Sequence record: MT446411.1
Strand: one strand, 5' to 3'
Origin: Escherichia virus TH40
Length of the DNA: 64,000 nucleotides
The first letter of the stretch is position 1, and every line of letters begins with the position of its first letter. Under the pieces are notes generated by a model, which searched no databases, was not told the DNA's origin, and saw nothing but the letters and a program-made list of their open reading frames with translations. Shown one piece after another: positions 6,080-62,826 of the stretch. The position numbers and the translations under genes were made by a program.

Positions 6080-6634
6080 TTAGTTCTTATAAAAACGGAA
6101 GGGATTGATATGAAAGGCTAACATAGCTTTCGGGATAGGACGGGACAGAAGACTTTTTAGCTTCCAACCACAATACACGCGCAGATAAAAGGTGATTCCA
6201 CCAACTTTAAGATAAGGTACGGAAGCGAACACGCCCCATGCATTATCATTCCACATCCAGAGCCAGCCATGGTGAGCTTTATCCGGGGAGCCCGATTCAA
6301 CATCAGGATTACCTTTATAATGGAATTTAGAATCACAATCGCGGCCCAGCTTATGATAAGCAAAATTGTAGGCTTTGTTTCGCCAGAGCCAGGCCACTCG
6401 CTGGAAGTAAACGCCTAACGGCCATTTTCTGATTTTTTCCCAGCGTTTAACATGACCACGGTCGCCATCAATTGGGTTGTCGTATGTCATCATCCAGTCA
6501 AATCCAAACGGAAGCTTACCAGTCTTTTTGTTATGGAACGGCACTACAAATGGTGTAAGGATAACAGCCAGAATCATGGAGATAAAATCCAGTGGCACTA
6601 ACAGAATCCAGCTTAGATATTTTAAAAGTTTCAT
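6080..6634 (-). CDS. hypothetical protein with N-terminal membrane anchor, Trp-rich (184 aa)
   Basis: Reverse ORF; N-terminal hydrophobic helix; TATAAATA-like element and terminator hairpin upstream. Confidence 0.5.
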   Translation of the reverse strand: MKLLKYLSWILLVPLDFISMILAVILTPFVVPFHNKKTGKLPFGFDWMMTYDNPIDGDRGHVKRWEKIRKWPLGVYFQRVAWLWRNKAYNFAYHKLGRDCDSKFHYKGNPDVESGSPDKAHHGWLWMWNDNAWGVFASVPYLKVGGITFYLRVYCGWKLKSLLSRPIPKAMLAFHINPFRFYKN

Positions 6635-6668
6635 AAATTTCCTTAGTTATGGGTACGTTATATTTATA

Positions 6669-6695
6669 AAAAAGCCCCAACCTTTCGGAAGGGGC
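6669..6695 (-). terminator. hairpin AGCCCC...GGGGCT followed by T-run on reverse strand
   Basis: Stem plus TTTTTT downstream of 6734..7117 gene. Confidence 0.45.
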
Positions 6696-6733
6696 TATAC
6701 CTTGTCGGGGTTCCACCTGCAAGGCAAGTGTTC

Positions 6734-7117
6734 TTATCCGCGGGCGAATGCCATTGCAGCGCGTTCGTTGGCACGGTCAGTGATGTTCAAGAATTTATCA
6801 CGAGCGATTTCGATTGGAGCGCCAACCCAGTCAGCGGCTCCATTACCTGGAGATTGTTTAGGACGAACCATATAAGTTGAAACTTTGGAACCAGCTAGTT
6901 TAGCACCAGGTGCAGCGGCATTCTTAACGTCTTTAGCTTTGATACCAAAACCAGTTACAATGCCCCAAGAAACACCATTAACTGGTTTCTTGAACATAAC
7001 ACGGTCGCCAATTGAAACCCCAGCTTTTTCTGGAGCTACTAAAGAAAATTTACCGGCTTCAGTCAGTACGGATTCGGTGATGGTATTGCGATTTAAAAAT
7101 TCTGCATATGTAAGCAT
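6734..7117 (-). CDS. internal-protein-like protein with capsid targeting sequence-like N-terminus (MLTYAEFLNRNTITE)
   Basis: Reverse ORF; N-terminus resembles T4 IPI/IPII/IPIII capsid targeting sequence MKTYQEFIAE; TATAAATA late promoter at 7149-7156. Confidence 0.45.
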   Translation of the reverse strand: MLTYAEFLNRNTITESVLTEAGKFSLVAPEKAGVSIGDRVMFKKPVNGVSWGIVTGFGIKAKDVKNAAAPGAKLAGSKVSTYMVRPKQSPGNGAADWVGAPIEIARDKFLNITDRANERAAMAFARG

Positions 7118-7148
7118 TTTGTTTTTCCATTATTAGGGTTGTTGTTAA

Positions 7149-7156
7149 TATTTATA
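7149..7156 (-). promoter_or_regulatory. late promoter TATAAATA
   Basis: Exact TATAAATA on reverse strand about 30 nt upstream of 6734..7117 start. Confidence 0.45.
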
Positions 7157-7175
7157 TTCCATAGTACCGGATGCA

Positions 7176-7223
7176 CCACCCGCTCGGATTTCTCATACTA
7201 CCGGGCGCACCGCCCGCTCTGGA
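7176..7223. repeat. tandem direct repeat (about 24 bp x2) TACCGG(A/G)(T/C)GCACC(A/G)CCCGCTC(G/T)GGA, each forming a short GC hairpin
   Basis: Two adjacent near-identical units between the tRNA cluster and the 6734..7117 gene. Confidence 0.5.
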
Positions 7224-7358
7224 AAAACTCCGTAAAAGGTGCGCCGTTTCAGCTGTGATATAAGGGGCCATTAACAAAACATAAAGATTTATTAATGTCA
7301 GTCCTTAAACAGGGAACTTCAGTCCGACGACTTACCGGTAGCGACCCGGTTTCTTGTT

Positions 7359-7434
7359 TGGTCGAGACAGTAGGAATCGAACCTACGACCCAGGACTTAG
7401 AAGGTCCTTGCTCTTCCTTCTGAGCTATGCCTCG
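7359..7434 (-). tRNA. tRNA-Arg (anticodon UCU), CCA encoded
   Basis: Hand-folded cloverleaf: acceptor CGAGGCA/TGTCTCG, D stem GCTC/GAGC, anticodon stem AGGAC/GTCCT with loop CTTCTAA, T arm GTAGG-TTCGATT-CCTAC, discriminator A, CCA. Confidence 0.85.
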
Positions 7435-7442
7435 TGCTTGTT

Positions 7443-7567
7443 CATAGCGGGGTGGACTCGAACCACCAATATTAAGTCACTCATGCTCCAAGCATGCAGG
7501 GCACTTACCCCGGACGGAATCGAACCGCATCTACAATACCTATCGCCATGATAATTTAAAATAAGTT
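7443..7567 (-). ncRNA. tRNA-like stable RNA candidate (contains two T-arm-like hairpins, no canonical acceptor stem); position matches the T4 RNA C/RNA D species between tRNA-Ile and tRNA-Arg
   Basis: GGTGG-TTCGAGT-CCACC and GCGG-TTCGATT-CCGT hairpins on reverse strand; no 7-bp acceptor pairing could be found. Confidence 0.3.
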
Positions 7568-7641
7568 TGGTGGCCCTGGGTGGAATCGAACCACCATCCA
7601 GCGATTATGAGTCGCTCGCTTGACCGTCCAGCTACAGGGCC
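7568..7641 (-). tRNA. tRNA with CAU anticodon (Met, or Ile as in T4 convention), CCA encoded
   Basis: Hand-folded cloverleaf: acceptor GGCCCTG/CAGGGCC, anticodon stem AGCGA/TCGCT with loop CTCATAA, T arm GGTGG-TTCGATT-CCACC, discriminator A, CCA. Confidence 0.8.
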
Positions 7642-7719
7642 TTAATTCTATTATGAAAGGCTCTTTGAGGGAAGAACCTTTGGTAATAGAGGGTACTTAT
7701 TAATAATAACGCGTTTTTA

Positions 7720-8196
7720 TTAAAGCATATCAAGTGCTTTAACGTTCAGGATTTGGATTTCTTCTTCGATGATGTATAATTTCACCCACGAAACTACGCG
7801 TATAAAATCACTATCATATTCCACTGGCTCGCCCAGCAATTCCTGGAGAGAACACAATAATTCAAATTCCTGGTCATTGTCACCTTCAACCAGATTTTCA
7901 ATACAAAGTGTTTTGTTAATGAATTCAGGAGTTAATTGACCAGATTTTACACCAGATTCAATGTGTGCGATAATCAAGTCTTTAACTATGTCCCATTCTG
8001 AATTACCACATTTATTGCGGTTATTACAATGAGAGCCTTGAAAAAGTTCCAGGATATATTTGTACTGCTGGATTTCTTGTTCTTCTACACCAAATATTGT
8101 CTGGGTTTTATAGTTGTCACCATCATTTTCCAAGGTTTCAATTTCAATCACATAACCTTTAGGGATGGTCTGACCAAATTTAATATTCATAATCAA
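7720..8196 (-). CDS. hypothetical protein (158 aa)
   Basis: Reverse ORF, start overlaps upstream stop (ATGA). Confidence 0.5.
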   Translation of the reverse strand: MIMNIKFGQTIPKGYVIEIETLENDGDNYKTQTIFGVEEQEIQQYKYILELFQGSHCNNRNKCGNSEWDIVKDLIIAHIESGVKSGQLTPEFINKTLCIENLVEGDNDQEFELLCSLQELLGEPVEYDSDFIRVVSWVKLYIIEEEIQILNVKALDML

Positions 8197-8573
8197 CCTT
8201 CATCAACAATAGTATGGGTATTAGCATTAACAATCTGCCACCAGTCAAAACGGTTAGAACCATATTGAGGCTTATTCTCGTTTTCTTTAATGATATCACG
8301 CAGTTCATCTTCGGTAGCGGCTTTTGCGATTAGGTCTGCATAACCGCCACGGGGATAATAGTTATCGCCAGCAAAGAGTAAAAAGTTTGTTTTGATATTC
8401 TTGAATTCTTCAAGAGTAATAACCGTTCCAGATGGTTGAACAATATCTACGTAACTATATCCTAATTTCTGGGCATTATCTACCGCTTCAAGCAGGGTGT
8501 CATGTGCCCACCCAATTTGACATTCTGGTTTTTCAGATGGATTTGCCTGATAATCTGCATACACTTTATACAT
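8193..8573 (-). CDS. hypothetical protein (126 aa)
   Basis: Reverse ORF; start placed at internal ATG 8573 with AAAGGTGAG RBS immediately after stop of 8575..8760. Confidence 0.45.
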   Translation of the reverse strand: MYKVYADYQANPSEKPECQIGWAHDTLLEAVDNAQKLGYSYVDIVQPSGTVITLEEFKNIKTNFLLFAGDNYYPRGGYADLIAKAATEDELRDIIKENENKPQYGSNRFDWWQIVNANTHTIVDEG

Positions 8574-8574
8574 T

Positions 8575-8760
8575 TTACTCACCTTTAGAGATTTTATCCA
8601 TAACGAAAGAGATTGAACCAATTAAGAATGCAACTACTAAAGAGATTATATTCTCAGAAGTTGAAAGCATATTCAACATAAAGCCAGCAAACATGCTAAA
8701 ACCAAAAGCGGTAACAGCAACAAGGGCAGTAACATTTCTAATTAATTCGCAACGTTTCAT
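8575..8760 (-). CDS. small hydrophobic/membrane protein (61 aa)
   Basis: Reverse ORF with GAGGAGAA RBS and early-type promoter 8789-8818. Confidence 0.4.
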   Translation of the reverse strand: MKRCELIRNVTALVAVTAFGFSMFAGFMLNMLSTSENIISLVVAFLIGSISFVMDKISKGE

Positions 8761-8788
8761 TTTATTCTCCTCAGTAGTTAATGGGATA

Positions 8789-8818
8789 ATTATGCACTAT
8801 CCCATTCAAAAGTACACT
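8789..8818 (-). promoter_or_regulatory. early promoter (-35 GTGTAC, -10 CATAAT) within GGGATA...TATCCC palindrome
   Basis: Reverse-strand GTGTAC-N18-CATAAT upstream of 8575..8760. Confidence 0.45.
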
Positions 8819-9051
8819 TATTTTTTACGGAAAATTGATTTATACTGTTTAGCCCATTTCTCGATAACTTCTGCCGGACCCTGGATAACAAAATAGTCCC
8901 CAAACTCTTCACCGCCGAGCTGACCGTAATTATCTAAGGCGTCGCGGAGAGTTCCATAAGGCATTTCGCCCATTTTATCTTTCTTGCCGGTGTAAATGAA
9001 TTGCACTTTAACATCAGCAGTTTCATTAATAAATTCTTGATAAGTTTTCAT
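8818..9051 (-). CDS. internal-protein-like protein, N-terminal capsid targeting sequence MKTYQEFINE
   Basis: N-terminal 10 aa match T4 internal protein capsid targeting sequence (MKTYQEFIAE) known to be cleaved by gp21 after Glu; early promoter 9077-9106. Confidence 0.65.
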   Translation of the reverse strand: MKTYQEFINETADVKVQFIYTGKKDKMGEMPYGTLRDALDNYGQLGGEEFGDYFVIQGPAEVIEKWAKQYKSIFRKK

Positions 9052-9076
9052 GTTGTCTCCAGTAGTTGATGGGATA

Positions 9077-9106
9077 ATTATACTGCAGTTATCCCAGCGC
9101 GTATAC
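9077..9106 (-). promoter_or_regulatory. early promoter (-35 GTATAC, -10 TATAAT) within GGGATAA...TTATCCC palindrome
   Basis: Reverse-strand GTATAC-N18-TATAAT upstream of internal-protein-like gene 8818..9051. Confidence 0.5.
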
Positions 9107-9349
9107 TTATTTTAAGTCTTCCAGACGTTTTTTCATCTTGGTACCATTCTTAGCAATTTCGCCTGCATCAGAACAAAGAGCAAGGAGAGCTTTAACTTTA
9201 CCCTGGTCGCCTTTAAAAGATGATGCATCTACAGAATCAGCAAGTTCTTTGATGCGAGCAAACAGACGCTCTGCTTCAGCAAGGGCTTGACCAAGTTTAA
9301 CTTCCATACCATGAGAAGATTCATTAATAAATGTTTGATAAGTTTTCAT
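9107..9349 (-). CDS. internal-protein-like protein, N-terminal capsid targeting sequence MKTYQTFINE
   Basis: Capsid targeting sequence-like N-terminus; tandem with three similar genes. Confidence 0.65.
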   Translation of the reverse strand: MKTYQTFINESSHGMEVKLGQALAEAERLFARIKELADSVDASSFKGDQGKVKALLALCSDAGEIAKNGTKMKKRLEDLK

Positions 9350-9357
9350 TTGAAATC

Positions 9358-9630
9358 CTATTTTAGATAAATTGCGTATTTTTTATACCCAGCTGTCTCA
9401 TGGCGGAGACCCTTGTCATTGGCAAAACGCTCAATGTTATTAATTTGGTTCTGGTCAAGTTCTGAAATGTCAAACGCGAAAAAGTTGCGTTTGTTTCCAA
9501 TTGTTATATGGTCAGTTAAGTCAATGCTATACAGGTGATTGATATTGTCAATCATAGCTTTGACTGCTTTACTAATTTTTACTTCTTCATTCAGTTGGGA
9601 CTCGTTGAAAAGTTCATTAAAAGTTTTCAT
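9358..9630 (-). CDS. internal-protein-like protein, N-terminal capsid targeting sequence MKTFNELFNE
   Basis: Capsid targeting sequence-like N-terminus. Confidence 0.6.
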   Translation of the reverse strand: MKTFNELFNESQLNEEVKISKAVKAMIDNINHLYSIDLTDHITIGNKRNFFAFDISELDQNQINNIERFANDKGLRHETAGYKKYAIYLK

Positions 9631-9638
9631 AAGAAACC

Positions 9639-9971
9639 TTATTTATACAGTTTAGCTAGTTCTTTACGTCCGCGAGCAGACATAATGAATTGTTCATCAC
9701 CAATTTTGAAATAAGCCATGCCGCCGTCAACAGCGATACCAATTTCTTTAGTACCTTCTTTACCTTTCCACTTGCCACCAGATTTTAGGACAGCTTCAAC
9801 TGCAGCTTTGGAATATTTGGATGTTTGAAAACGTTCATTACCAATCTGAAAGAAAACACCATCTGCATTTTTGGATAAACCAAATTTCAGAGAGCCTTCA
9901 CTATCATCAATTGATTTAGTCTCATTGATGGCGGATTCGGCTAAAAACTCATTATAAGTCTTGATGTTCAT
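9639..9971 (-). CDS. internal-protein-like protein, N-terminal capsid targeting sequence M(N)IKTYNEFLAE
   Basis: Start at internal ATG 9971 (GGAG RBS); capsid targeting sequence-like N-terminus; promoter 10003-10033. Confidence 0.6.
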   Translation of the reverse strand: MNIKTYNEFLAESAINETKSIDDSEGSLKFGLSKNADGVFFQIGNERFQTSKYSKAAVEAVLKSGGKWKGKEGTKEIGIAVDGGMAYFKIGDEQFIMSARGRKELAKLYK

Positions 9972-10002
9972 TTTAACTCCGTTTGTTCGTTGGTGTAGGA
10001 AC

Positions 10003-10031
10003 ATAATACTGTGCCTACACTCATTTGTACA

Positions 10032-10033
<2 letters not shown>
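10003..10033 (-). promoter_or_regulatory. early promoter (-35 GTGTAC, -10 TATTAT)
   Basis: Reverse-strand GTGTAC-N18-TATTAT upstream of internal-protein-like gene array. Confidence 0.45.
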
Positions 10034-10722
<689 letters not shown>

Positions 10723-10723
<1 letters not shown>

Positions 10724-11400
10724 TATATTACCTTATTAATTTTATCAAAAAGTTCTTCGAGTGTGCCATCGTTTTTAATAACAATGTCACTAGCTAGTGG
10801 TGGAAGTCCAGCTTCCGTAATGTGTGTATCAGTAGAATGATTTGCTTCATCGCGTTCTACAAAGATTATTGTAGCACCCATCGCCCGAAGCGAATCAAGT
10901 TCGTTCTTTTGGCGAACATCAGGGACAACGTAATATTTATATCCAGAATAGAGGTTGTCAAGATAATCGCACGCAAAAGTTTTAATCCAAAACATGCTGT
11001 CGAACTCTGTACAAACGATGTCAGTTCCAAGGGTCTGCATGAAACGTCTAACTGTCCAGGGCTCAACATTATTTAGTGTGTGAAATTCAATGATTTTACG
11101 AACCATATCTGGATTCGGAAGGTCAAGATTATATTGTTGTTTTAACCATTCAAGAGCATCAACCAGAAGAATATAAGCTTCGGTATTGTTCATTATCAAG
11201 GTTTTTTCACGGTCATAACCTTGTCCATCAAAATTTTCCAGGGTCAAATTGTGTGGCAGGTCTTGACGAACCCACGCTTTATAAAGCGCTTCTTTAATTG
11301 GACCAGCAAGTTGCCACTTTGTTCCGTTTTGACTAATAACATAATCAGCGGTCGTATCTTTACCACTGCGTTTTTTACCCACAATCGCAATTAATTTCAT
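10723..11400 (-). CDS. 1: deoxynucleoside monophosphate kinase gp1
   Basis: P-loop VGKKRSGKDTTAD, ...MGATIIFVER...NDTHITEAGLP, matches T4 gp1. Confidence 0.85.
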
Positions 11401-12081: not shown

Positions 12082-12906
12082 TTATGAATTTCTCCATACT
12101 TTCTGGGAAGAGAATCTTTTGCCTTTCGACATGAACTGCTGAAGGGGGAGTAATACCACATTTGCCCAGTCGCTGGGCTTGATTTCAGTGATACTACCTT
12201 TTATATTACCAGGTATATATGCTTTAATCATCTGGTCAGCCCCTTTAAATCCCTTCACCTTTGACCAATCAATCTTCAGATGAGTCTTGTTTGTAATCGT
12301 AGGAGTATTAGCATATTGCTTAAGAAGTTCCTCAAGGAACTCTTGACGTGCCTTCGGTGGAATATAGTGCAAGTTCAAACCGTACATCAAATTATGCTTA
12401 CCTAGACCAAGATAAATGATTAACGGATATTTATCCCAGTATGGAAGAGTATCCTTATGCTTTGCATCATAGATATAAGCATAAAGTTTGCCTGGTTGAG
12501 GTTTAGCCGTTACGTGACCGCGAACTGATTTCTTAATTGTCTCTGCGAACCATCTGGCGGATTTGGTGTTGCTTGCAGCGCCTTCGTTAGCAATCTTATC
12601 TCTTATGCTCTTCCTAAAGCTATTCACCATTATCAGCTGGCGTTCCGCCTTCGTAAGTTTACCAGCAGGTTTCTTTTTGAGCTTAGATACTTTATAAGCA
12701 GTCTGAATTCTTGAATGATACCTCGACATGCTTTTGGTAAAGGTCGAATAGTTGATTCCTTTCTCTTCAGCAAACTTCTTCGAGGTCATTCCTTTTTCTT
12801 TTGCTGTATAAAATTCAACCCCTATCTCAACCCATTGTTGTTCGGATTTACTGGGTTTCGGACCTGGTTTATCTGCAGATTCATTGATAAATGTAAAAAT
12901 ACTCAT
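12082..12906 (-). CDS. 2: gp2 DNA end protector protein
   Basis: 274 aa from ATG overlapping gene 4 stop (ATGA coupling); basic; synteny 3-2-4. Confidence 0.65.
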
Positions 12907-13352
12907 CCTTTCCATCCTAATTTTTTCAGTGAGTTTTCAGTGATTATCCTGAACGTTATACCCATCTTATCCGCGGTAGCTTGCGCAGCTTTCCATTTGT
13001 CAGAGTTAACGCTCCAGGTGTACATCTCGTTAATAAATCTCTTTTTACTCGCGGCTGTATTATTAACCGGTTTGGTTGGAGGTCTTGTTTCTTTTAATGG
13101 CTTAACTTCAAAAAAGAACTGTTGTCCTGTATCAAACTTAACCCAGAAATCCATATAATATCTGCGCTTTTTCCCTTCAGCATTGCAGAAGTATGGAATA
13201 ATCACAGTCTCAGAGCCCCATTGAACAACGTTCGGATGGTTGTCGAGCCATCTCATCAACCAAGCCTCCCAGCTTGACCGGTATTGTATTTTCTTCCAGT
13301 CGCCCTTATATTTTTCTATATTAGTGGGCTTAAATTTCCCGGAGTATGCCAT
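12903..13352 (-). CDS. 4: gp4 head completion protein
   Basis: 149 aa, synteny adjacent to divergent gene 53. Confidence 0.7.
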
Positions 13353-23580: not shown

Positions 23581-25391
23581 TGAAACAGAATTTAAAAATT
23601 GGAAATATGGTTGATGATGGTACGGGTGATTACCTTCGTCTCGGCGGTCAAAAAATAAATAATAACTTTGATGACCTTTATTATCAGCTAGGGGACGGTG
23701 AAAATCCCCATGCAGCTGGTGCATGGAAAACTTGGACTACGCAAGAAGGTACCGAGTTGTCCGCTGTTATGGGCCGAAGCTATACCATCGATACATCAGC
23801 GGGTGCCGTTCGAGTCGTCCTTCCGAAAGGAACAACTCAAGAATACAATTATGTAATTCGCTTGCGTGATGTGTTTGCTACCTGGCAAATCAACCCGGTG
23901 ACAATTGTTCCTGCAGTCGGGGATACGATTAAAGGCTCACCGAATCCAGTAGAAATTAAACGCAACTTAGCCGACCTTGAACTTGTATATTGTTCACCAG
24001 GTCGTTGGGAATATATCGATAATAAACAAGTCGATAAAATTTCAAATAACGACGTTGCCACAGTTGCATCCCAACAGTTTATTGCCACCGAAGGACAAAC
24101 TGACTTTATCAATGTGTTTGGTGCTATTCCATATAGCGTATCGAACTTAGAAGTCAAACATCGTGGTAACGACCTGTTTTATGGTAAAGATGATATTTTT
24201 GACCCGGTGAATGCTGAATTTGGTTCCCCTGGTGCAAACCCTGGTGAAATCGTTGCGCTTGATGGTAAAAGCATCCGTCTGAAAATGCCATGTGCTGAAG
24301 GTGATACTGTTATCATCCGAACATTTAATGATGGTATTGCTCAATGGCGTAGTTCGTATAATCGTCGTGATATACTTGTTCGTAGTCAAGACAGGACCAA
24401 AGAAACAACAATTAATGGTTCTTTGATTGTTACAGATTTGGCAACCAAACACACCTTTACAATTGAAGAACTTGGTATTTCTCCGGGTAGCCCAATTAAC
24501 CCAAACGCATGTCAGGTATTCATTAACAGTATTTTACAACATCAGGCTGGTACTGCGGGAACTCCAGTATTTTATTGTGAAGGTGCACAAGGTTCTACTG
24601 CTGCAGAATGTAGTGCAAATGGTGGTAGCTGGTCTGAATCAAACCAGGATTATTTGCTGCAATTTGATGATGATAACCGTATCGAAGGCATTAGCATTTA
24701 CCGTGAATTTGAAGACGGTGATATTCTGTCGGTCATTTGGTACAATAACGATATCGGCACAACTATGACCATGGATGAAATCCGTGATGAGACTGATACT
24801 CTTTATGTTTCTCAGGGCAATACGTTGAGCCTAACCGGTCGTGTGCGTATTACAGATTTTGATAATCCGTTTGCACCAAACGTTGAACCAGTCGGTCTTC
24901 AGGAAGTTGTTCCATCTTCTGTTGGCGCTATCTTTGAATTATTCTATCCGGTCGGTACAATTTACGAAAATACGGTTAACCCAAATAACCCGGTTACTTA
25001 TATGGGATTTGGTTCATGGAAACGTTTGAAAGAACGTGTAATTGTTGCCTGGTCAGACGACCCTGCCTCAAACTTCCATACAAACAATAATGACCTGGAT
25101 TCTGGTGGTAACCCACAAGCGACAGCAGGTGGTACAGGTGGTAGCGTTGAAGTTCATATTAAAGATATAAACGTACCTAAACTTGAAACTGATGAGAAGG
25201 TTTTAGTTGTTGATGATAATGGCCCGATTGTTGTCGGTGGTTGTCAGGTAGACCCGGATGCACAAGGTCCAGCCTATACCAAATACAGAGAAGACAAAGC
25301 CACCATTAACCAGGCGCAAGACCCTCAAGCTCAACCGGTTTATACAATGCCTCCATATTTGATTGCTCATCGCTGGGTAAGGATTGCTTAA
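23580..25391 (+). CDS. 10: gp10 baseplate wedge / short tail fibre attachment
   Basis: 603 aa vs T4 602; synteny. Confidence 0.85.
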   Translation: MKQNLKIGNMVDDGTGDYLRLGGQKINNNFDDLYYQLGDGENPHAAGAWKTWTTQEGTELSAVMGRSYTIDTSAGAVRVVLPKGTTQEYNYVIRLRDVFATWQINPVTIVPAVGDTIKGSPNPVEIKRNLADLELVYCSPGRWEYIDNKQVDKISNNDVATVASQQFIATEGQTDFINVFGAIPYSVSNLEVKHRGNDLFYGKDDIFDPVNAEFGSPGANPGEIVALDGKSIRLKMPCAEGDTVIIRTFNDGIAQWRSSYNRRDILVRSQDRTKETTINGSLIVTDLATKHTFTIEELGISPGSPINPNACQVFINSILQHQAGTAGTPVFYCEGAQGSTAAECSANGGSWSESNQDYLLQFDDDNRIEGISIYREFEDGDILSVIWYNNDIGTTMTMDEIRDETDTLYVSQGNTLSLTGRVRITDFDNPFAPNVEPVGLQEVVPSSVGAIFELFYPVGTIYENTVNPNNPVTYMGFGSWKRLKERVIVAWSDDPASNFHTNNNDLDSGGNPQATAGGTGGSVEVHIKDINVPKLETDEKVLVVDDNGPIVVGGCQVDPDAQGPAYTKYREDKATINQAQDPQAQPVYTMPPYLIAHRWVRIA

Positions 25392-39467: not shown

Positions 39468-39895
39468 TGTTTATTATCCCTGATGATTACGAATTAACTC
39501 TTGAAAACATTGAAAGTGTTTCCGAAGAAGCTCAGGGACAATTTGATTCATTATCTGAAGCCTTAGAAAAAGACGATATAAATATTATTGTAGAAAACAT
39601 GTTTGCAGCCGGTGAATATGAAAAAGCAACGGTTATCGGCGCGCTGAATGAAGGTGTTCAGCTTAACGAATTTATCGTTAAACATGTATCGTCTCGCGGC
39701 GAGTTAACCCGCACAAAAGACCTAGCTACTCGTAAGCGTAATGCTTTCCAAACAACTGGTCTTTCTAAAGCTAAACGTCGTCAAATTGCCCGTCTGGCTA
39801 CTAAAACAAAAAGAGCAAACCCATCTACGCAAATCAGAGCAGAGCGCAAGCGCAAAAAAGCTCGAGCTAAGCGTAAAGCATTCGGACTTGATTAA
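39467..39895 (+). CDS. 68: gp68 prohead core protein
   Basis: 142 aa vs T4 141, synteny. Confidence 0.7.
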
Positions 39896-40533
39896 TGGAA
39901 CAGAAACCAGAGTTACTAATTGAACACTGGGGTCAACCGGGCGAAATTAAAGATGGTGTACCGATGTTGGAATCTCATGACGGTTCCAGCAGCGGTTTAA
40001 AGCCAGGACTTTATATTGAAGGTATTTTCCTACAAGCTGAAGTTGTTAACCGTAATAAACGACTTTATCCTAAACATATTTTGGAAAAAGCCGTTGCTGA
40101 TTATATGACAGAACAGGTTGCTACTAAACAAGCTTTAGGAGAATTAAATCATCCGCCCCGTGCTAACGTCGACCCTATGCAAGCCGCTATTATTATTGAA
40201 GATATGTGGTGGAAAGGTAATGATGTATATGGCCGAGCGCGTATTATCGAAGGCGACCATGGCCCAGGTGATAAACTTGCTGCAAATATAAGAGCAGGTT
40301 GGATTCCAGGTGTATCTAGTCGTGGACTTGGTTCCTTGACTAAATCAGCAAAAGGTTATAGCATCGTTAATGAAGGTTTTAAATTGACGGTTGGAGTAGA
40401 TGCAGTATGGGGGCCAAGTGCTCCGGACGCTTGGGTCAAACCAAAGCAGATTACAGAATCACAAACGGCAGTTGCCGATACCAGTGCCGATGACGCCTTT
40501 ATGGCTCTCGCAGAGGCTTTAAAGACGTTATAA
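39895..40533 (+). CDS. 21: gp21 prohead core scaffold / protease
   Basis: 212 aa identical length to T4 gp21; synteny. Confidence 0.9.
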   Translation: MEQKPELLIEHWGQPGEIKDGVPMLESHDGSSSGLKPGLYIEGIFLQAEVVNRNKRLYPKHILEKAVADYMTEQVATKQALGELNHPPRANVDPMQAAIIIEDMWWKGNDVYGRARIIEGDHGPGDKLAANIRAGWIPGVSSRGLGSLTKSAKGYSIVNEGFKLTVGVDAVWGPSAPDAWVKPKQITESQTAVADTSADDAFMALAEALKTL

Positions 40534-40565: not shown

Positions 40566-41384
40566 ATGCTTAAAGAACAACTCATTTCTGAAGCTCAGAA
40601 TATCGATGCTTCCGTTGCTCTCGATAGTATTTTCGAATCAGTTAATTTGTCCCCGGAAGCGAAAGCTACCTTCGGCACTGTATTCGAAGCTACCGTCAAG
40701 CAACACGCCATCAAACTGGCAGAATCTCACATTCACGCCATCGCTGAAAAAGCTGAAGAAGAAGTCGAAAAGAATAAAGAAGAAGCCGACGAAAAAGCAG
40801 AGAAAAAACTGAAAGAATCTGCAGCTAAATTCCTGGACCACGTTGCTAAAGAATGGCTCGCTGAAAATAAACTGGCTGTCGACCGTGGCATTAAAGCTGA
40901 CCTGTTCGAATCCATGTTCACCGGCATGAAAGAACTGTTCGTTGAGCACAACGTTGTTGTTCCAGAAGAATCTGTCGATGTTGTTGCAGAAATGCAGGAA
41001 GAACTGGCTGAACAGAAAGAAGAAACCGCTAATCTGTTCGAAGAAGTTGCTAAGCGTGATGCTTATATCAATTATGTCCAACGTGAAGTTGCGTTGACTG
41101 AAGCGACTAAAGACCTGACTGAATCTCAAAAAGAAAAAGTTGGTTCTCTGGTAGAAGGCATGGAATACTCTGATGCATTCGGTACCAAAATTGGCGTTAT
41201 CGTTGAAATGGTTAAAGGTCAGGTAGAACCCACCGACAAACCAATCACCGAAGCCGCTATAAATAAAAATGTAGACGATGCTGCGGCACTGAATTACATT
41301 TCAGAAGCAGTTGAAGAAAAAGGCGCCAAGCCTACCCTGTCCTTCGCGGACTTGTCTGCTCTCGCAGCATCACGAATTTCTTAA
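40566..41384 (+). CDS. 22: gp22 prohead core scaffolding protein
   Basis: 272 aa acidic coiled-coil; late promoter 40529-40536. Confidence 0.85.
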   Translation: MLKEQLISEAQNIDASVALDSIFESVNLSPEAKATFGTVFEATVKQHAIKLAESHIHAIAEKAEEEVEKNKEEADEKAEKKLKESAAKFLDHVAKEWLAENKLAVDRGIKADLFESMFTGMKELFVEHNVVVPEESVDVVAEMQEELAEQKEETANLFEEVAKRDAYINYVQREVALTEATKDLTESQKEKVGSLVEGMEYSDAFGTKIGVIVEMVKGQVEPTDKPITEAAINKNVDDAAALNYISEAVEEKGAKPTLSFADLSALAASRIS

Positions 41385-43408: not shown

Positions 43409-44689
43409 ATGGCAAAGATTAACAAATTACTGCGCGAGTCAACTATTACTACCAGCAACTCCTTGGGCCGCCCGAATCTTGTTGCTTTGACCCGCGCTAC
43501 GACTAAATTGATTTACCGCGATATCATCGCTGAACAACGTACTAACCAACCTGTTGCTGCACTGTATGGTGTTAAATATCTTACTCCTGATAATGAATTC
43601 AGTTTCCAGACGGGCGCTACTTATGGAGGCGAAGTCGGTTCTAAAGACCGCACAACTATTCCAGAATTAACTACAGCCACTCAGCCTGTGGCTAAAGGCG
43701 AATATGTAAAATACCAAAATATCGTTTACAAAGCTCTGGTTGATAATCCATTTGCATCGACCACAGAAACAGTGTTATCTGATGTTCTGCAAGAAGGTCT
43801 TATTGCATCGACTATTCGCCTTGTTCCTGATGCCGCACACACTGAAAAATTCGAAGCCGGTGATGTTGAAATTAGCAATGCTGTATTCCAGGTTAATAAA
43901 TGGAATGCTCCGGTTAAAACACGTAAATTGAAAACTGCATTAACTGTTGAACTTGCTCAGGATATGGAAGCAAATGGTTTTAACGCTCCTGCTTTCTTGG
44001 AAGACCTGCTTGCCACTATTATGGCAGATGAAATTAACAAAGATGTTCTTCAGTCTCTTATTACCGTTTCCAAGCGTTATAAAGTAACTGGCGTTTCTGA
44101 CAATGGCACCATCGATTTAACATATGATGCAGCTCCAGAAGGCGCACGTAAACTGTATGAACTGGTTTGCGAAATGAACTCCGAAATTCAGAAAACTACA
44201 TCTTATTCCGGTACCTTTGTTGTTGCCTCTAGCCGTGTTGCTGCTATGTTGGCCGGTTCTGGTTGGTTGAAACACAGACCAGAAGACGAACAGTGGCTCC
44301 CCGAAACAGCGTACGGTTATTTGATTAATGGCCTCCCTGTATTCTGTGATGTTAACAGTCCATTGGATTATGTAACTGTTGGTGTTAAAGAAAATTACGG
44401 CGGAAACGAAGTCGTAGGCTCAATTTTCTATGCTCCTTATACCGAAGGCCTGGACTTGGATGATGAAGAGCACGTTGGTGCGTTTAAGGTCATTGTGGAC
44501 CCAGACAGCTTGCAGCCATCTATCTCTCTGATGGTTCGTTACGCACTTTCAGCTAACCCGTACACCGTTGCTAAAGACGATAAAGAAGCTCGTATTATCG
44601 ATGCAACCAATATGGATTTAATGGCCGGTCAGAGCAATATGTCTTATCTGCTCGGTGTTAAACTTCCGCCAATCATTTATGAGGCGTAA
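43409..44689 (+). CDS. 24: gp24 head vertex protein
   Basis: 426 aa; MAKINKLLRESTITTSNSLGRPNLVALTRATTKLIY... matches T4 gp24; late promoter 43375-43382. Confidence 0.9.
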   Translation: MAKINKLLRESTITTSNSLGRPNLVALTRATTKLIYRDIIAEQRTNQPVAALYGVKYLTPDNEFSFQTGATYGGEVGSKDRTTIPELTTATQPVAKGEYVKYQNIVYKALVDNPFASTTETVLSDVLQEGLIASTIRLVPDAAHTEKFEAGDVEISNAVFQVNKWNAPVKTRKLKTALTVELAQDMEANGFNAPAFLEDLLATIMADEINKDVLQSLITVSKRYKVTGVSDNGTIDLTYDAAPEGARKLYELVCEMNSEIQKTTSYSGTFVVASSRVAAMLAGSGWLKHRPEDEQWLPETAYGYLINGLPVFCDVNSPLDYVTVGVKENYGGNEVVGSIFYAPYTEGLDLDDEEHVGAFKVIVDPDSLQPSISLMVRYALSANPYTVAKDDKEARIIDATNMDLMAGQSNMSYLLGVKLPPIIYEA

Positions 44690-45973
44690 ATGCAAAAGAT
44701 TAATGCACTAATTCACGAATCAACATTAACGGCGGCCAACCAGGTCGCCCGTCCTAATTTGCTTTCTTATACTCAGGCTACGAATAAACGAATTTTTAAA
44801 GCACTCGTGGCCGAACAGAAAACTACCCAGCCTGTTGCAGCCCTGTATGGTGTTCGTGTTCTGAACCCAGATGATAAAATGACTTATCTCGGTGGAGCAA
44901 CATTTGCAGGTCAGATTGGTATGTTCGAGCGTAAGAATATTCCAGAATTTACAAACAAAGACGAAGCTTATGCAGTCGGCGATATGTTCCAGTTTGAAAG
45001 TGTTGTGTTCAAAGTTTTGGAAGCATCCCCATTCGCCGGTACACTCGAAACTGATTTAGGTGAAGTTATTTCTGAAGCCATTGCTGCTGGGCATATAAGA
45101 ATGATGTCAGATGCTGCTTTCACTGATAAATTTGAAAAGGGGCATCCTGAAATTGCTGAAGCTGGTTTTCGTATCGATAAATGGCAGACTGAAGTTAAAT
45201 CCAGAAAGTTGAAAACTTCTTTAACTGTCGAGCTTGCCCAGGACCTGGAAGCAAACGGTTTTGATGCAACAGACTTCATCGATAATATTCTCGGCATTCA
45301 AATGGCAGAGGAAATTAATAAGGATGTATTGCAATCCCTTATTACTGTTAGTTCCCGCTTCAAGGTGCAAGGTGTTTCGGAAAAAGGTGTATTGAATCTT
45401 ACTGACCCGAAATATGATAATGCCCAGGACCGCGCACGAACCCTGTATTATTATATGTGTGAAATGAATTCTGCAGTTCAACGTCAGACTTCGTTTGCTG
45501 GTACATATGCAGTTGCTTCTTCCCGTTGTGCAGCTATTTTAGCCGCTTCTGGCTGGGTTGAGAAAAAGGAAGACCAGGATGAATTGGCCTATGGTGTTCT
45601 GAAGAACGGTTTGCCTCTTTACGCTGATATGAATAGTCCATGCGATTATGTTATTGTTGGTGTAAATGCGGATATGGGTGAAGGTCAGACGGTCGCATCT
45701 TTATATTATGCGCCTTATACGGAAGGACTTAGCGAAGTTGATGATGAGGGTGATACCTCGGTTGGGGAATTCAAGGTTATTGTTGACCCCGAAAGCTTAC
45801 AACCTACGGTTGCACTGTTAGCTCGTTATGCTTTGACTGCGAACCCTTACACCGTTGCTAAAGATGATAAAGAAGCTCGCCTTATTGATGGAGCTGATAT
45901 GGATAAGATGGCTAACCAAAGTCAATTGAGTTCTTATCTTGGTGTTAAACTTCCACCGCTGGAAAAAGAATAA
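44690..45973 (+). CDS. gp24 paralogue (second vertex-protein-like gene)
   Basis: 427 aa, clearly paralogous to preceding gene along full length but diverged; ATG directly follows stop of first copy. Confidence 0.85.
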   Translation: MQKINALIHESTLTAANQVARPNLLSYTQATNKRIFKALVAEQKTTQPVAALYGVRVLNPDDKMTYLGGATFAGQIGMFERKNIPEFTNKDEAYAVGDMFQFESVVFKVLEASPFAGTLETDLGEVISEAIAAGHIRMMSDAAFTDKFEKGHPEIAEAGFRIDKWQTEVKSRKLKTSLTVELAQDLEANGFDATDFIDNILGIQMAEEINKDVLQSLITVSSRFKVQGVSEKGVLNLTDPKYDNAQDRARTLYYYMCEMNSAVQRQTSFAGTYAVASSRCAAILAASGWVEKKEDQDELAYGVLKNGLPLYADMNSPCDYVIVGVNADMGEGQTVASLYYAPYTEGLSEVDDEGDTSVGEFKVIVDPESLQPTVALLARYALTANPYTVAKDDKEARLIDGADMDKMANQSQLSSYLGVKLPPLEKE

Positions 45974-60765: not shown

Positions 60766-62826
60766 CTACGAAAGGAATTTAGGAGGAATAGCTTCCAAAT
60801 TAATACAACTAGCAAGAATACCAAGACCTTGATTGACTTTCTTCGTTACACCAGAGGATGCAAACGATGCAAAGTCAACAGATTCTACTGGCTCTTCTGT
60901 TTCCTCGCCCTGATAAACGACAAGCTCACCAGTTTCCATCAACACATCACCATCATAGATAACTGCATTTTCATCCAGTTGGTCCGTAGTCTGGATATCA
61001 GCTTCCAGCATTTTGACGTTCGCGTTTCCTTGATACGAAGCATCAGTAATTTTGGTAATCTTAACTACAGTCCCACGAGGAAGAATAACTTCCTGCTCGG
61101 ACGGGTTGCTTGACAATTCCCCAGGAACAATTACGTTAATTAAGTCCGCCCCAGAAATTTTCCAACCAACATGCATCATTACATGGTCGCGGCGTGCATC
61201 CGGCATATCTGGTAAAACAATTTCGTCATCAGCCTGGAAAGATGTCCCATCACGATAGTCCTGATGAACTGCAGCCATAGCAACGTTCGCCACCCAGCCA
61301 CCAAAGATAATCGGTTTAAACGACGTTGATACATAGTTCCTGAAATAAAATAATTTAGATTTCTTAATTTTATCAAATGTAGGAACGTTTAAATATTGAC
61401 CACGCCAAAGAGTTGTATTAGGCGGCAACTTATGTCCAATTTCAAAGGCCGAATCCAATTCCTTAATTGTTTCGACAACTCTGTCTAGATTTAGGAATTC
61501 AGCTTCTTCTTCATAATATTTGCCCATCAAATAATTATTAATATCGGCATAGTTTGCTCCACAATAATCTGCAATTGCTTCTCGCTGGCCATAATGGAAA
61601 CGGTTGTCAGTATACCCTGCTGTAAAATTAAGAGTATTTTCTGATGCTTCTTCGGCAAAGTCTTTAACTGCAACACGAATGGCGCTTGTGTATTCTTTTT
61701 CCCAGAGCGAGGCTGCATAAGTGGCTGCATCCAGGTTGGGAGGAGCATCATTCATTTTTCTTTCGATAAATGCGGCTTTGCGAAGGTTAAGAATCTCTGC
61801 ACATGATTCCGCAAAAATCTGCATCTGCTTCATACTACCAACCGGAGCACGTTTAAGTTCACGGTGCATACGGTTAAAAATTGGGTCAGAGTCTTCAACA
61901 CGAATTTCTTCTTTCCAAACACCATTTGCTCGCATAGCCGTATCTGCTGCGCGCATACGAGCCATAGTATTCGTTTCGGAAGGTCGAACAAAAATTTCCA
62001 GTTCTTCATAATCATCGATAAGTTCTGCTGTAGCTGGTCGACTAAACTTAGCAGCTTCTGCATCAATTTCGTCCCAACCTTCTGGCACGGAATCCATTGG
62101 GGCGTACTGGGCTTGTGCAATAGCTCGGCGGCTGATTTTCGTTTTCTGTGCAACAGCAGCATCGGTCTTTTTGTTTGCTGCGTCAATCAGAATCTCGGCT
62201 GCAATTTCTTGTTTGGATACTTGTGTACCATTATCTTTATTGGTGAATACATCACCAACTTTAGTTTCGACTTTTTTATATTTCTCAGGGACTGGTGGCA
62301 TACCATCAACCGAAAGTAGGTCAACACCCCTTTTGTACATAATTACATAAGCGTTCTTTTTACCAAGGCCAGAAGCATTCGGAAGAACATGATAACGTCC
62401 GCTGGTTTTCATTTGAATCAGTCGATTCATAATACGAATAATAGCTTGGTCTTGTCCTTTCATCTTTTTGGATGGGAAACGGAACAAGACTACATCAGGT
62501 TTGCCTAGTTTAATGCTTTCCCAGACTGTAGTAAAAATCAAGTTAATTGCATCAAGAGGTTTTTCACCTAAACCGCCCTTCAGAGGAACAGCATGGCCAT
62601 GTGAAGTCCCGGATAACAGAAATACCTCGGCAATTGCATCGCCGCGTTTATATTGTTTAACTGTTTCTTTGCCCGTGAATTGCATCAAACGGGCCATAAG
62701 AGAATTGGTCCCAGGAACACCGAATTGCCAAACCTGTGGGACCTTGTATTTTGGATTCATATTAATGACAGGATAACCGAAGGCTTCGATATATTTGTCA
62801 AAGAGTTCATTTAATTGTTCAGACAT
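60766..62826 (-). CDS. alt: Alt ADP-ribosyltransferase (virion-packaged)
   Basis: 686 aa vs T4 682; position between gene 54 and ligase; reverse-strand TATAAATA late promoter at 62852-62859. Confidence 0.8.
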   Translation of the reverse strand: MSEQLNELFDKYIEAFGYPVINMNPKYKVPQVWQFGVPGTNSLMARLMQFTGKETVKQYKRGDAIAEVFLLSGTSHGHAVPLKGGLGEKPLDAINLIFTTVWESIKLGKPDVVLFRFPSKKMKGQDQAIIRIMNRLIQMKTSGRYHVLPNASGLGKKNAYVIMYKRGVDLLSVDGMPPVPEKYKKVETKVGDVFTNKDNGTQVSKQEIAAEILIDAANKKTDAAVAQKTKISRRAIAQAQYAPMDSVPEGWDEIDAEAAKFSRPATAELIDDYEELEIFVRPSETNTMARMRAADTAMRANGVWKEEIRVEDSDPIFNRMHRELKRAPVGSMKQMQIFAESCAEILNLRKAAFIERKMNDAPPNLDAATYAASLWEKEYTSAIRVAVKDFAEEASENTLNFTAGYTDNRFHYGQREAIADYCGANYADINNYLMGKYYEEEAEFLNLDRVVETIKELDSAFEIGHKLPPNTTLWRGQYLNVPTFDKIKKSKLFYFRNYVSTSFKPIIFGGWVANVAMAAVHQDYRDGTSFQADDEIVLPDMPDARRDHVMMHVGWKISGADLINVIVPGELSSNPSEQEVILPRGTVVKITKITDASYQGNANVKMLEADIQTTDQLDENAVIYDGDVLMETGELVVYQGEETEEPVESVDFASFASSGVTKKVNQGLGILASCINLEAIPPKFLS

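Follow-up and report, generated by a model that had tools for sequence, protein, structure and literature searches.

What are the four small genes that follow one another on the minus strand of the Escherichia virus TH40 sequence (record MT446411.1), and why do their products begin with nearly the same residues? They lie at 8818-9971 of the 64-kb stretch of DNA analysed here (the window; its six-frame translation comprises 127,996 codons). A first-pass annotation, made from the letters and a list of open reading frames (ORFs), had read them as internal-protein-like genes, each with a capsid targeting sequence (CTS) of the kind found in T4. We conclude that they are, in all likelihood, a polymorphic array of CTS-tagged internal head proteins, which would be loaded onto the scaffold, trimmed by the prohead protease gp21 and injected with the DNA, and which probably act as inhibitors of a single defence target each. 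The four genes, called A to D here, are:

8818-9051, minus strand: gene A, Ip6 family, 77 residues (aa); leader MKTYQEFINE, followed by T
9107-9349, minus strand: gene B, Ip5 family, 80 aa; leader MKTYQTFINE, followed by S
9358-9630, minus strand: gene C, Ip9 family, 90 aa; leader MKTFNELFNE, followed by S; a second possible site, LNE before E, ends at residue 15
9639-9971, minus strand: gene D, 110 aa; leader MNIKTYNEFLAE, followed by S; a second site, INE before T, ends at residue 17

D, C and B are separated by 8 nt each, with 55 nt before A and 57 nt after it, and a Shine-Dalgarno-like GGAG, AGGA or AAGG stands 6-7 nt 5' of every ATG. Four consecutive reverse-strand ORFs with CTS-like N-termini are thus present as first described. 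The pattern KT[YF]..[FL][ILFV].E has four matches in the six frames of the window, all at the N-termini of A to D, where 0.04 are expected, and 300 residue shuffles gave a maximum of one match.

For the T4 internal protein IPIII, the first ten residues are enough for packaging, including that of foreign proteins; residues 4 and 7 of the CTS are critical for targeting, and residues 8 and 10 for processing (Mullaney and Black, as reviewed in PMC9026906). The protease gp21 cuts after the Glu in L/I-x-E (PMC9026906). A and B keep Y4, F7, I8 and E10, and D has Y6, F9, L10 and E12, which is the same register offset by two. The leaders of A and B end in INE and that of D in LAE, all of them matches to the gp21 motif in sequence. 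C is the least canonical of the four, with F4 (as in T4 IPI), L7, F8 and E10 and a non-canonical FNE at the end of the leader, the LNE coming later; most other Ip9 members have MKTYQEFI.E where C has MKTFNELFNE. As for the T4 leader itself, MKTYQEFIAE had been given for all three T4 internal proteins; in the T4 record it begins IPII and IPIII, but IPI starts MKTFKEFTSTTTPVSTITE, followed by A.

The position of the array points the same way. Phage vB_EcoM_VR26 (Gaprivervirus, Tevenvirinae) is 97.5% identical across the whole window, and coverage of at least 80% is reached by 17 phage records. The genes 57B/Acb1 and trna.4 flank the array; in the T4 reference genome a single ipI stands between the same two genes, so the array occupies the classical ipI slot, one of the two T-even internal protein loci (57B to trna.4, or next to e/denV). 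The protease expected to cut off the leaders and the scaffolding protein thought to be bound by the CTS are both encoded in the window, as is gp23:

10032-10487, minus strand: 57B/Acb1, anti-CBASS (cyclic-oligonucleotide-based antiphage signalling system) phosphodiesterase (PF23474, E-value 1e-59); conserved left flank of the slot
8575-8760, minus strand: trna.4 homologue; conserved right flank of the slot
39895-40533, plus strand: gp21 prohead protease (Peptidase_S77, E-value 6e-102)
40566-41384, plus strand: gp22 scaffolding core protein (T4_CASP, E-value 9e-91)

Beyond 57B follow 57A and genes 1, 3 and 2, and beyond trna.4 and trna.3 lie tRNA-Met and tRNA-Arg. The array directly adjoins a known counter-defence gene in 57B, which is still named 'RNA ligase' in several RefSeq records.

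All four protein sequences are present letter for letter in public databases. VR26 carries A as ip6, B as ip5, C as ip9 and D as a 'hypothetical protein, similar to VR7 gp156'; VR7 is annotated with ip6, ip5 and ip9 too, and A and C are identical to its proteins. Each of the three named genes matches one PHROG family labelled internal virion/head protein with the whole profile covered: A phrog_8111 (E-value 2.5e-51), B phrog_3499 (2.3e-41) and C phrog_7673 (3.3e-56). B is 98.8% identical to its homologue in phage EAWsc9, the closest among the matches listed, and C shares 78% identity with the Ip9 protein of phage RB15, known from an old UniProt entry (Q38376). Ip5 (RB51), Ip6 (T6) and Ip9 (RB15) were reportedly described by Repoila et al. 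in 1994 as polymorphic internal proteins of T-even phages; our own literature search on Ip5, Ip6 and Ip9 was unproductive. By tblastn against 50,697 phage records, the families of A, B and C occur in 245, 496 and 172 records, respectively, mostly of T-even phages of Escherichia, Shigella and Yersinia. Remote B homologues (49% identity) adjoin the endolysin gene, which is the other internal protein locus, and the Ip5, Ip6 and Ip9 families are found in hydroxymethylcytosine (hmC) phages as well. A, B and C are therefore already annotated families, and both the locus and the idea of injected effectors have been described before.

Past the leaders, no significant pairwise similarity was found among the four bodies, and the predicted folds of C and D differ, which bears out the earlier remark that the bodies are mutually unrelated. 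Pfam searches with A to D and their neighbours returned sub-threshold noise alone, and a sequence search of the PDB with A and D gave no match even at an E-value of 10. Measured against diverged homologues, with synonymous sites near saturation, the ratio of nonsynonymous to synonymous substitution rates (dN/dS) is 0.14-0.17 for A, 0.06 for B, 0.11 for C and 0.17 for D. All four genes are under strong purifying selection. Chance or non-coding ORFs are rejected on these values together with conservation across genera, and a recent tandem duplication is rejected on the unrelated bodies and on orthologues of each gene in other phages, in varying combinations.

Between the genes stand three elements of a common design, a -35-like box, a spacer of 17-18 nt and TATAAT, TATTAT or CATAAT within a hairpin, which bracket D-C-B, A and trna.4:

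9972-10031, minus strand: promoter-like element and stem-loop 5' of D; TGTACA, 17 nt spacer, TATTAT; hairpin GTGTAGG...CCTACAC, -14 kcal/mol, z = -2.5
9052-9106, minus strand: promoter-like element and stem-loop 5' of A; GTATAC, 18 nt spacer, TATAAT; hairpin GGGATAA...TTATCCC
8761-8817, minus strand: promoter-like element and stem-loop 5' of trna.4; -13.9 kcal/mol, z = -2.7; right boundary of the cassette region

The last of these resembles the T4 element 5' of trna.4, and it forms direct repeats with the element 5' of A (repeat family D4, 86%). Repeated promoter/stem-loops of this kind stand on both sides of ipI in T4, too. Such promoter-early stem-loops (PeSLs) have been proposed to drive modular shuffling in T4-like genomes (Arbiol 2010; Comeau 2014, PMC4122927). 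The window's promoter-like elements share with PeSL cassettes the -35-like box, the spacer and a TAYWAT-type -10 in a hairpin; they differ in that the stability of the hairpin 5' of A does not exceed that of shuffled sequence (z = -0.23).

We scanned 28 loci around 57B homologues (IMG/VR) together with the window, 29 in all, for ORFs with a CTS. These loci hold 57 such ORFs with 16 unrelated body families. The 57B-proximal slot carries between none and four of them in varying combinations: VR25 is without B, and VR20 has another cassette of 92 aa at the position of B. Yersinia phage P8 has five cassettes. The four-gene array is thus at the high end, neither unique nor maximal. The DNA that encodes the leaders is itself conserved, the first 43 nt of A and B being 86% identical. 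Moreover, one and the same Ip5 body, SSHGMEVKLG, is joined to MKTYQTFINE in gene B and to the 15-residue IPI-like leader MKTFKEFAAKTTITE in a second locus (L008, 5529-5786); in both, leader and body meet exactly at the predicted cleavage site. Judged from these sequences, the leaders, too, are modules that are exchanged, and the predicted cleavage site is where they are joined.

Given homology and synteny, we infer for A to D the packaging, cleavage, injection and anti-defence function of internal proteins, along the following lines. In this T-even phage, a Gaprivervirus like VR7 and VR26, the four genes would be the internal protein cassettes of the ipI slot, and the first 10-12 residues of each product would serve as its CTS. 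On the model of T4 IPIII, these residues would bind the gp22-based scaffolding core during prohead assembly; gp21 would then cut after the Glu of L/I-x-E, leaving mature proteins of about 67, 70, 80 and 98 residues (predicted 7.5-10.7 kDa). The mature proteins would stay in the head beside the DNA until infection, when they would be ejected into the cell. The likeliest mode of action there would be stoichiometric and ahead of all phage gene expression, with one host defence disabled by each protein. In T4, variants of GmrSD, a type IV nuclease, are targeted in this way. Recombination at the shared leader-coding DNA and at the repeated promoter/stem-loops would move cassettes from one phage to another.

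The likeness to the T4 internal proteins is considerable: the ipI slot, a leader of the IPII/IPIII type, the L/I-x-E motif, small size (mature T4 IPI has 76 residues; PMC3012670), flanking repeated early promoter/stem-loops, and cognate gp21 and gp22 in the phage. Unlike T4, the phage has four cassettes in the slot instead of one, and their bodies show no detectable similarity to those of T4. The first-pass annotation had noted that at least IPI acts against a host restriction system. Silas et al. (2025) show that every one of the T4 proteins Ip1, Ip2 and Ip3 blocks a GmrSD-type type IV restriction enzyme of its own, without cross-protection, and they mention at least ten Ips recognised by the signal sequence (PMC12373910). 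That diverse cargo behind a conserved targeting signal represents injected anti-defence proteins is the published view (PMC3012670, citing Repoila 1994; PMC12373910). The ipI slot, the PHROG families, the CTS residues in A, B and D, and the presence of gp21 and gp22 support the same reading of this array as a diversified set of injected effectors, which for A to D would hold by extension.

Several observations weigh against this reading. C has L7/F8 where the T4 CTS has F7/I8, and its FNE is not L/I-x-E, so that C may be targeted or processed less well. No similarity to T4 IPI, IPII or IPIII was detected in the bodies of A to D, which leaves no basis in homology for assigning them a target, GmrSD enzymes included. 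The bodies are also weakly basic to neutral, with isoelectric points (pI) of 6.8-9.3 (A 7.8, B 8.8, C 6.8, D 9.3) against 9.0-9.7 for T4 IPI-III. No late promoter was found directly 5' of the array; the only TATAAATA nearby (9640-9647) is formed by the last codons of D and is too close to the ATG of C to serve it. As for T4 ipI, the array is presumed to be expressed late either from a box within gene 1 (10934-10941) or from the early-type promoters. A literature search found no virion proteomics or N-terminal data for A to D or for VR7-like phages. Finally, there is the DNA of the phage itself. Gaprivervirus is without hmC synthase and keeps dCTPase, DenA, DenB and Alc, and an unknown base modification has been inferred (PMC8056088, PMC12115623). 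VR26 has neither β-gt/gene 42 nor α-gt where T4 has them. Given that gene 42 and the glucosyltransferases are missing, the GmrSD enzymes directed against glucosylated hmC (glc-hmC), which the T4 proteins block, may not be the relevant targets, and those of the array may differ from the GmrSD variants of T4 Ip1-3. The VR26 stretches concerned are 23748-24251 (L034) and the region between gp47 and gp55; a 167-aa protein with no Pfam match replaces β-gt/42.

Could the proteins be packaged and yet not be specific effectors? They might serve mainly as filler or counter-ions for the DNA, or bind it inside the head and help it to condense and to be ejected. We regard this as improbable, although it survives better than the other alternatives: it leaves unexplained why there are 16 unrelated body families, why near-identical phages differ in the presence of these bodies and why each body is under strong purifying selection; C is neutral; and all three T4 internal proteins are specific inhibitors (PMC12373910).

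A second alternative holds that the shared N-terminus does not act as a targeting signal in this phage and is a conserved 5' coding or translation-initiation module, kept as a recombination substrate, and that some of the proteins, especially C and D, are cytoplasmic after ordinary expression. Conservation of the leader at the DNA level, the early-type promoters 5' of D and A, the departure of the C leader at residues 7 and 8 and the two extra residues of D all agree with it. Conservation tracks the residues of targeting and cleavage (Y4, F7, I/L8, E10) even where the DNA differs, as between D and A, and the sufficiency of ten T4 leader residues for the packaging of foreign proteins argues in the same direction. 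So does a profile search for the D family among 1.84 billion representative proteins, in which three distant small relatives (102-111 aa) all begin MKT[YF]K.FL.E. On balance, we consider this explanation very unlikely and retain that of capsid-targeted internal proteins.

The third alternative touches D only, and it is just as hard to credit: that D is the 121-aa protein of VR7, VR26 and SP18 started from an in-frame ATG at 10004, its MKTY-like segment internal and D no internal protein, a form that many GenBank/RefSeq records use, thereby hiding the CTS, and for which the ORF is indeed open, is opposed by the overlap of that ATG with the -10 box and hairpin and its lack of a Shine-Dalgarno sequence, by the GGAG 6 nt 5' of the ATG at 9971, by other records that annotate the 110-aa form, and by homologues in phages of Edwardsiella, Salmonella, Serratia, Citrobacter and Pectobacterium that begin at MKTY, one metagenomic homologue alone (P0011, 145 aa) having an N-terminal extension. 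Given a start at 10004 that overlaps a -10 box and hairpin and has no ribosome-binding site, and homologues that begin at MKTY, 9971 is taken as the start of D.

With this start, the D family is present in 55 phage records from about ten host genera, among them Edwardsiella, Citrobacter, Serratia, Pectobacterium, Salmonella, Klebsiella and Kosakonia. It adjoins 57B in some phages and the endolysin gene in others, and in the records examined it is labelled 'hypothetical', save for one 'profilin'. The profile search returned seven relatives in all; leaving aside two repeat proteins (196 and 1952 aa), every sequence retrieved starts with a CTS, and no bacterial or cellular relatives emerged among the seven. 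The D family thus appears, from these sequences, to be confined to CTS-bearing phage proteins.

The predicted structure of the D body, built from 11 sequences, consists of two β-β-β-β-α repeats and resembles the Whirly/PUR class (pLDDT, the predicted local distance difference test score, 75; pTM, the predicted template modelling score, 0.62). The two halves of D align in the family alignment through (V/A)YF(Q/K)IG.E.F..S; the internal repeat was not detected by BLAST and is visible in the alignment and the model alone. A search of BFVD with the model returned one homologue and weak matches, including a phage 'Whirly transcription factor' (Foldseek E-value 0.08, TM-score 0.54). With moderate confidence, we place the D model in the Whirly/PUR-like fold class, which is an assignment of fold and not of function. 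Members of this fold (Whirly, PUR-alpha, MRP1-MRP2 and SsgA, built of β4-α repeats) mostly bind single-stranded nucleic acids; D shares 5-15% sequence identity with them, and SsgA and ErpC have a Whirly-like fold without nucleic-acid binding.

From this we draw one tentative proposal, whose correctness we ourselves rate as doubtful. D may represent an unrecognised internal protein family, often mis-started in the records, whose members would be injected nucleic-acid binders that shield the entering genome or jam a nucleic-acid-sensing defence, unlike IPI*, which binds a nuclease. Since Gaprivervirus is without hmC synthase and glucosyltransferases, the array, together with the candidate fifth protein E described below, could target defences other than the glc-hmC-specific GmrSD enzymes. 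If true, injected phage proteins would have a wider range of targets than is known today.

The injected internal proteins are the earliest anti-defence weapons of a T-even phage, and among them targets are known only for T4 Ip1, Ip2 and Ip3. Proteins of the Ip5, Ip6 and Ip9 families, present in 172-496 sequenced phages including therapeutic candidates, are reasonable candidates for a screen of defence inhibitors. The locus is of an already known kind with annotated members, and no new principle emerges from it. What is new is the D family as CTS proteins, with its fold hypothesis, and the orphan candidate E. The value of the window lies in flagging a systematically mis-annotated or unannotated CTS family (D) and the orphan E, and in locating the cassettes in a genus with unknown DNA modification.

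Further from the array, the window holds this candidate and a late promoter box before it:

6734-7117, minus strand: candidate fifth CTS protein E, 127 aa; leader MLTYAEFLNRNTITE, followed by SVLTE and then A; N-terminus MLTYAEFLNRNTITESVLTEAGKF
7149-7156, minus strand: T4-type late promoter box TATAAATA, 31 nt 5' of the ATG of E

The leader of E, MLTYAEFLNRNTITESVLTEA, is degenerate, long and CTS-like; K2 is replaced by L, and residue 10 is R. As with the long leader of IPI, cleavage would need a later site, either ITE (ending at residue 15) or LTE (ending at residue 20). E is an ORFan, confined to 15 Gaprivervirus-like records that are all at least 99% identical, and it has no match in Pfam or PHROG. 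Its G+C content is 45-48%, and that of the internal protein array 35-39%. Other T4-like phages have larger ORFs starting MKTYNEFLNESVLTEA about 3-4 kb downstream of 57B, at the position equivalent to that of E, which therefore appears to be a second CTS slot. On its leader, E is a candidate fifth CTS protein of the phage.

In the window, the homologue of gp2, the DNA end protector (12082-12915, minus strand), starts M(ERM)SIFTFINE, followed by S, and T4 gp2 starts MAIFQIINE, followed by S. Both end in an I-N-E motif of the gp21 type, like the second half of a CTS, a hint that gp2 may be targeted to the head or processed. Its annotated start may lie three codons too far upstream. An Alt-like ADP-ribosyltransferase homologue of 686 aa (60766-62826, minus strand) starts MSEQLNELFDK, and the leader of T4 Alt is MELITELFDE. 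The Glu at the end of the T4 leader is replaced by Lys here, so the processing site of the Alt-like protein may differ, possibly being the LNE that ends at residue 7.

In the tRNA region, an Rfam scan of 6500-10600 gave the two tRNAs and no other match. Directly 3' of tRNA-Arg, 7238-7354 (minus strand) matches T4 rnaD, the stable 'species 2' RNA, at 85% over 118 nt, and ARAGORN and Rfam made no call there. Between tRNA-Arg and tRNA-Met, T-arm-like repeats lie within 7435-7567 (minus strand), with GGGTGGACTCGAACCACCA at 7450-7468 and a similar copy at 7508-7526. ARAGORN and Rfam called no tRNA at 7435-7567; these repeats may be decayed tRNA genes or tRNA-like small RNAs.

Among the head genes, finally, stand two tandem gp24-like vertex protein genes (43409-44689 and 44690-45973, plus strand), which encode 426 and 427 aa and match the Gp23 family at E-values of about 1e-97 each. 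The L/I-x-E motif of gp21 occurs near the N-termini of these proteins as well, at residues 8-10 in both gp24 copies and at residues 61-63, among other sites, in gp23.

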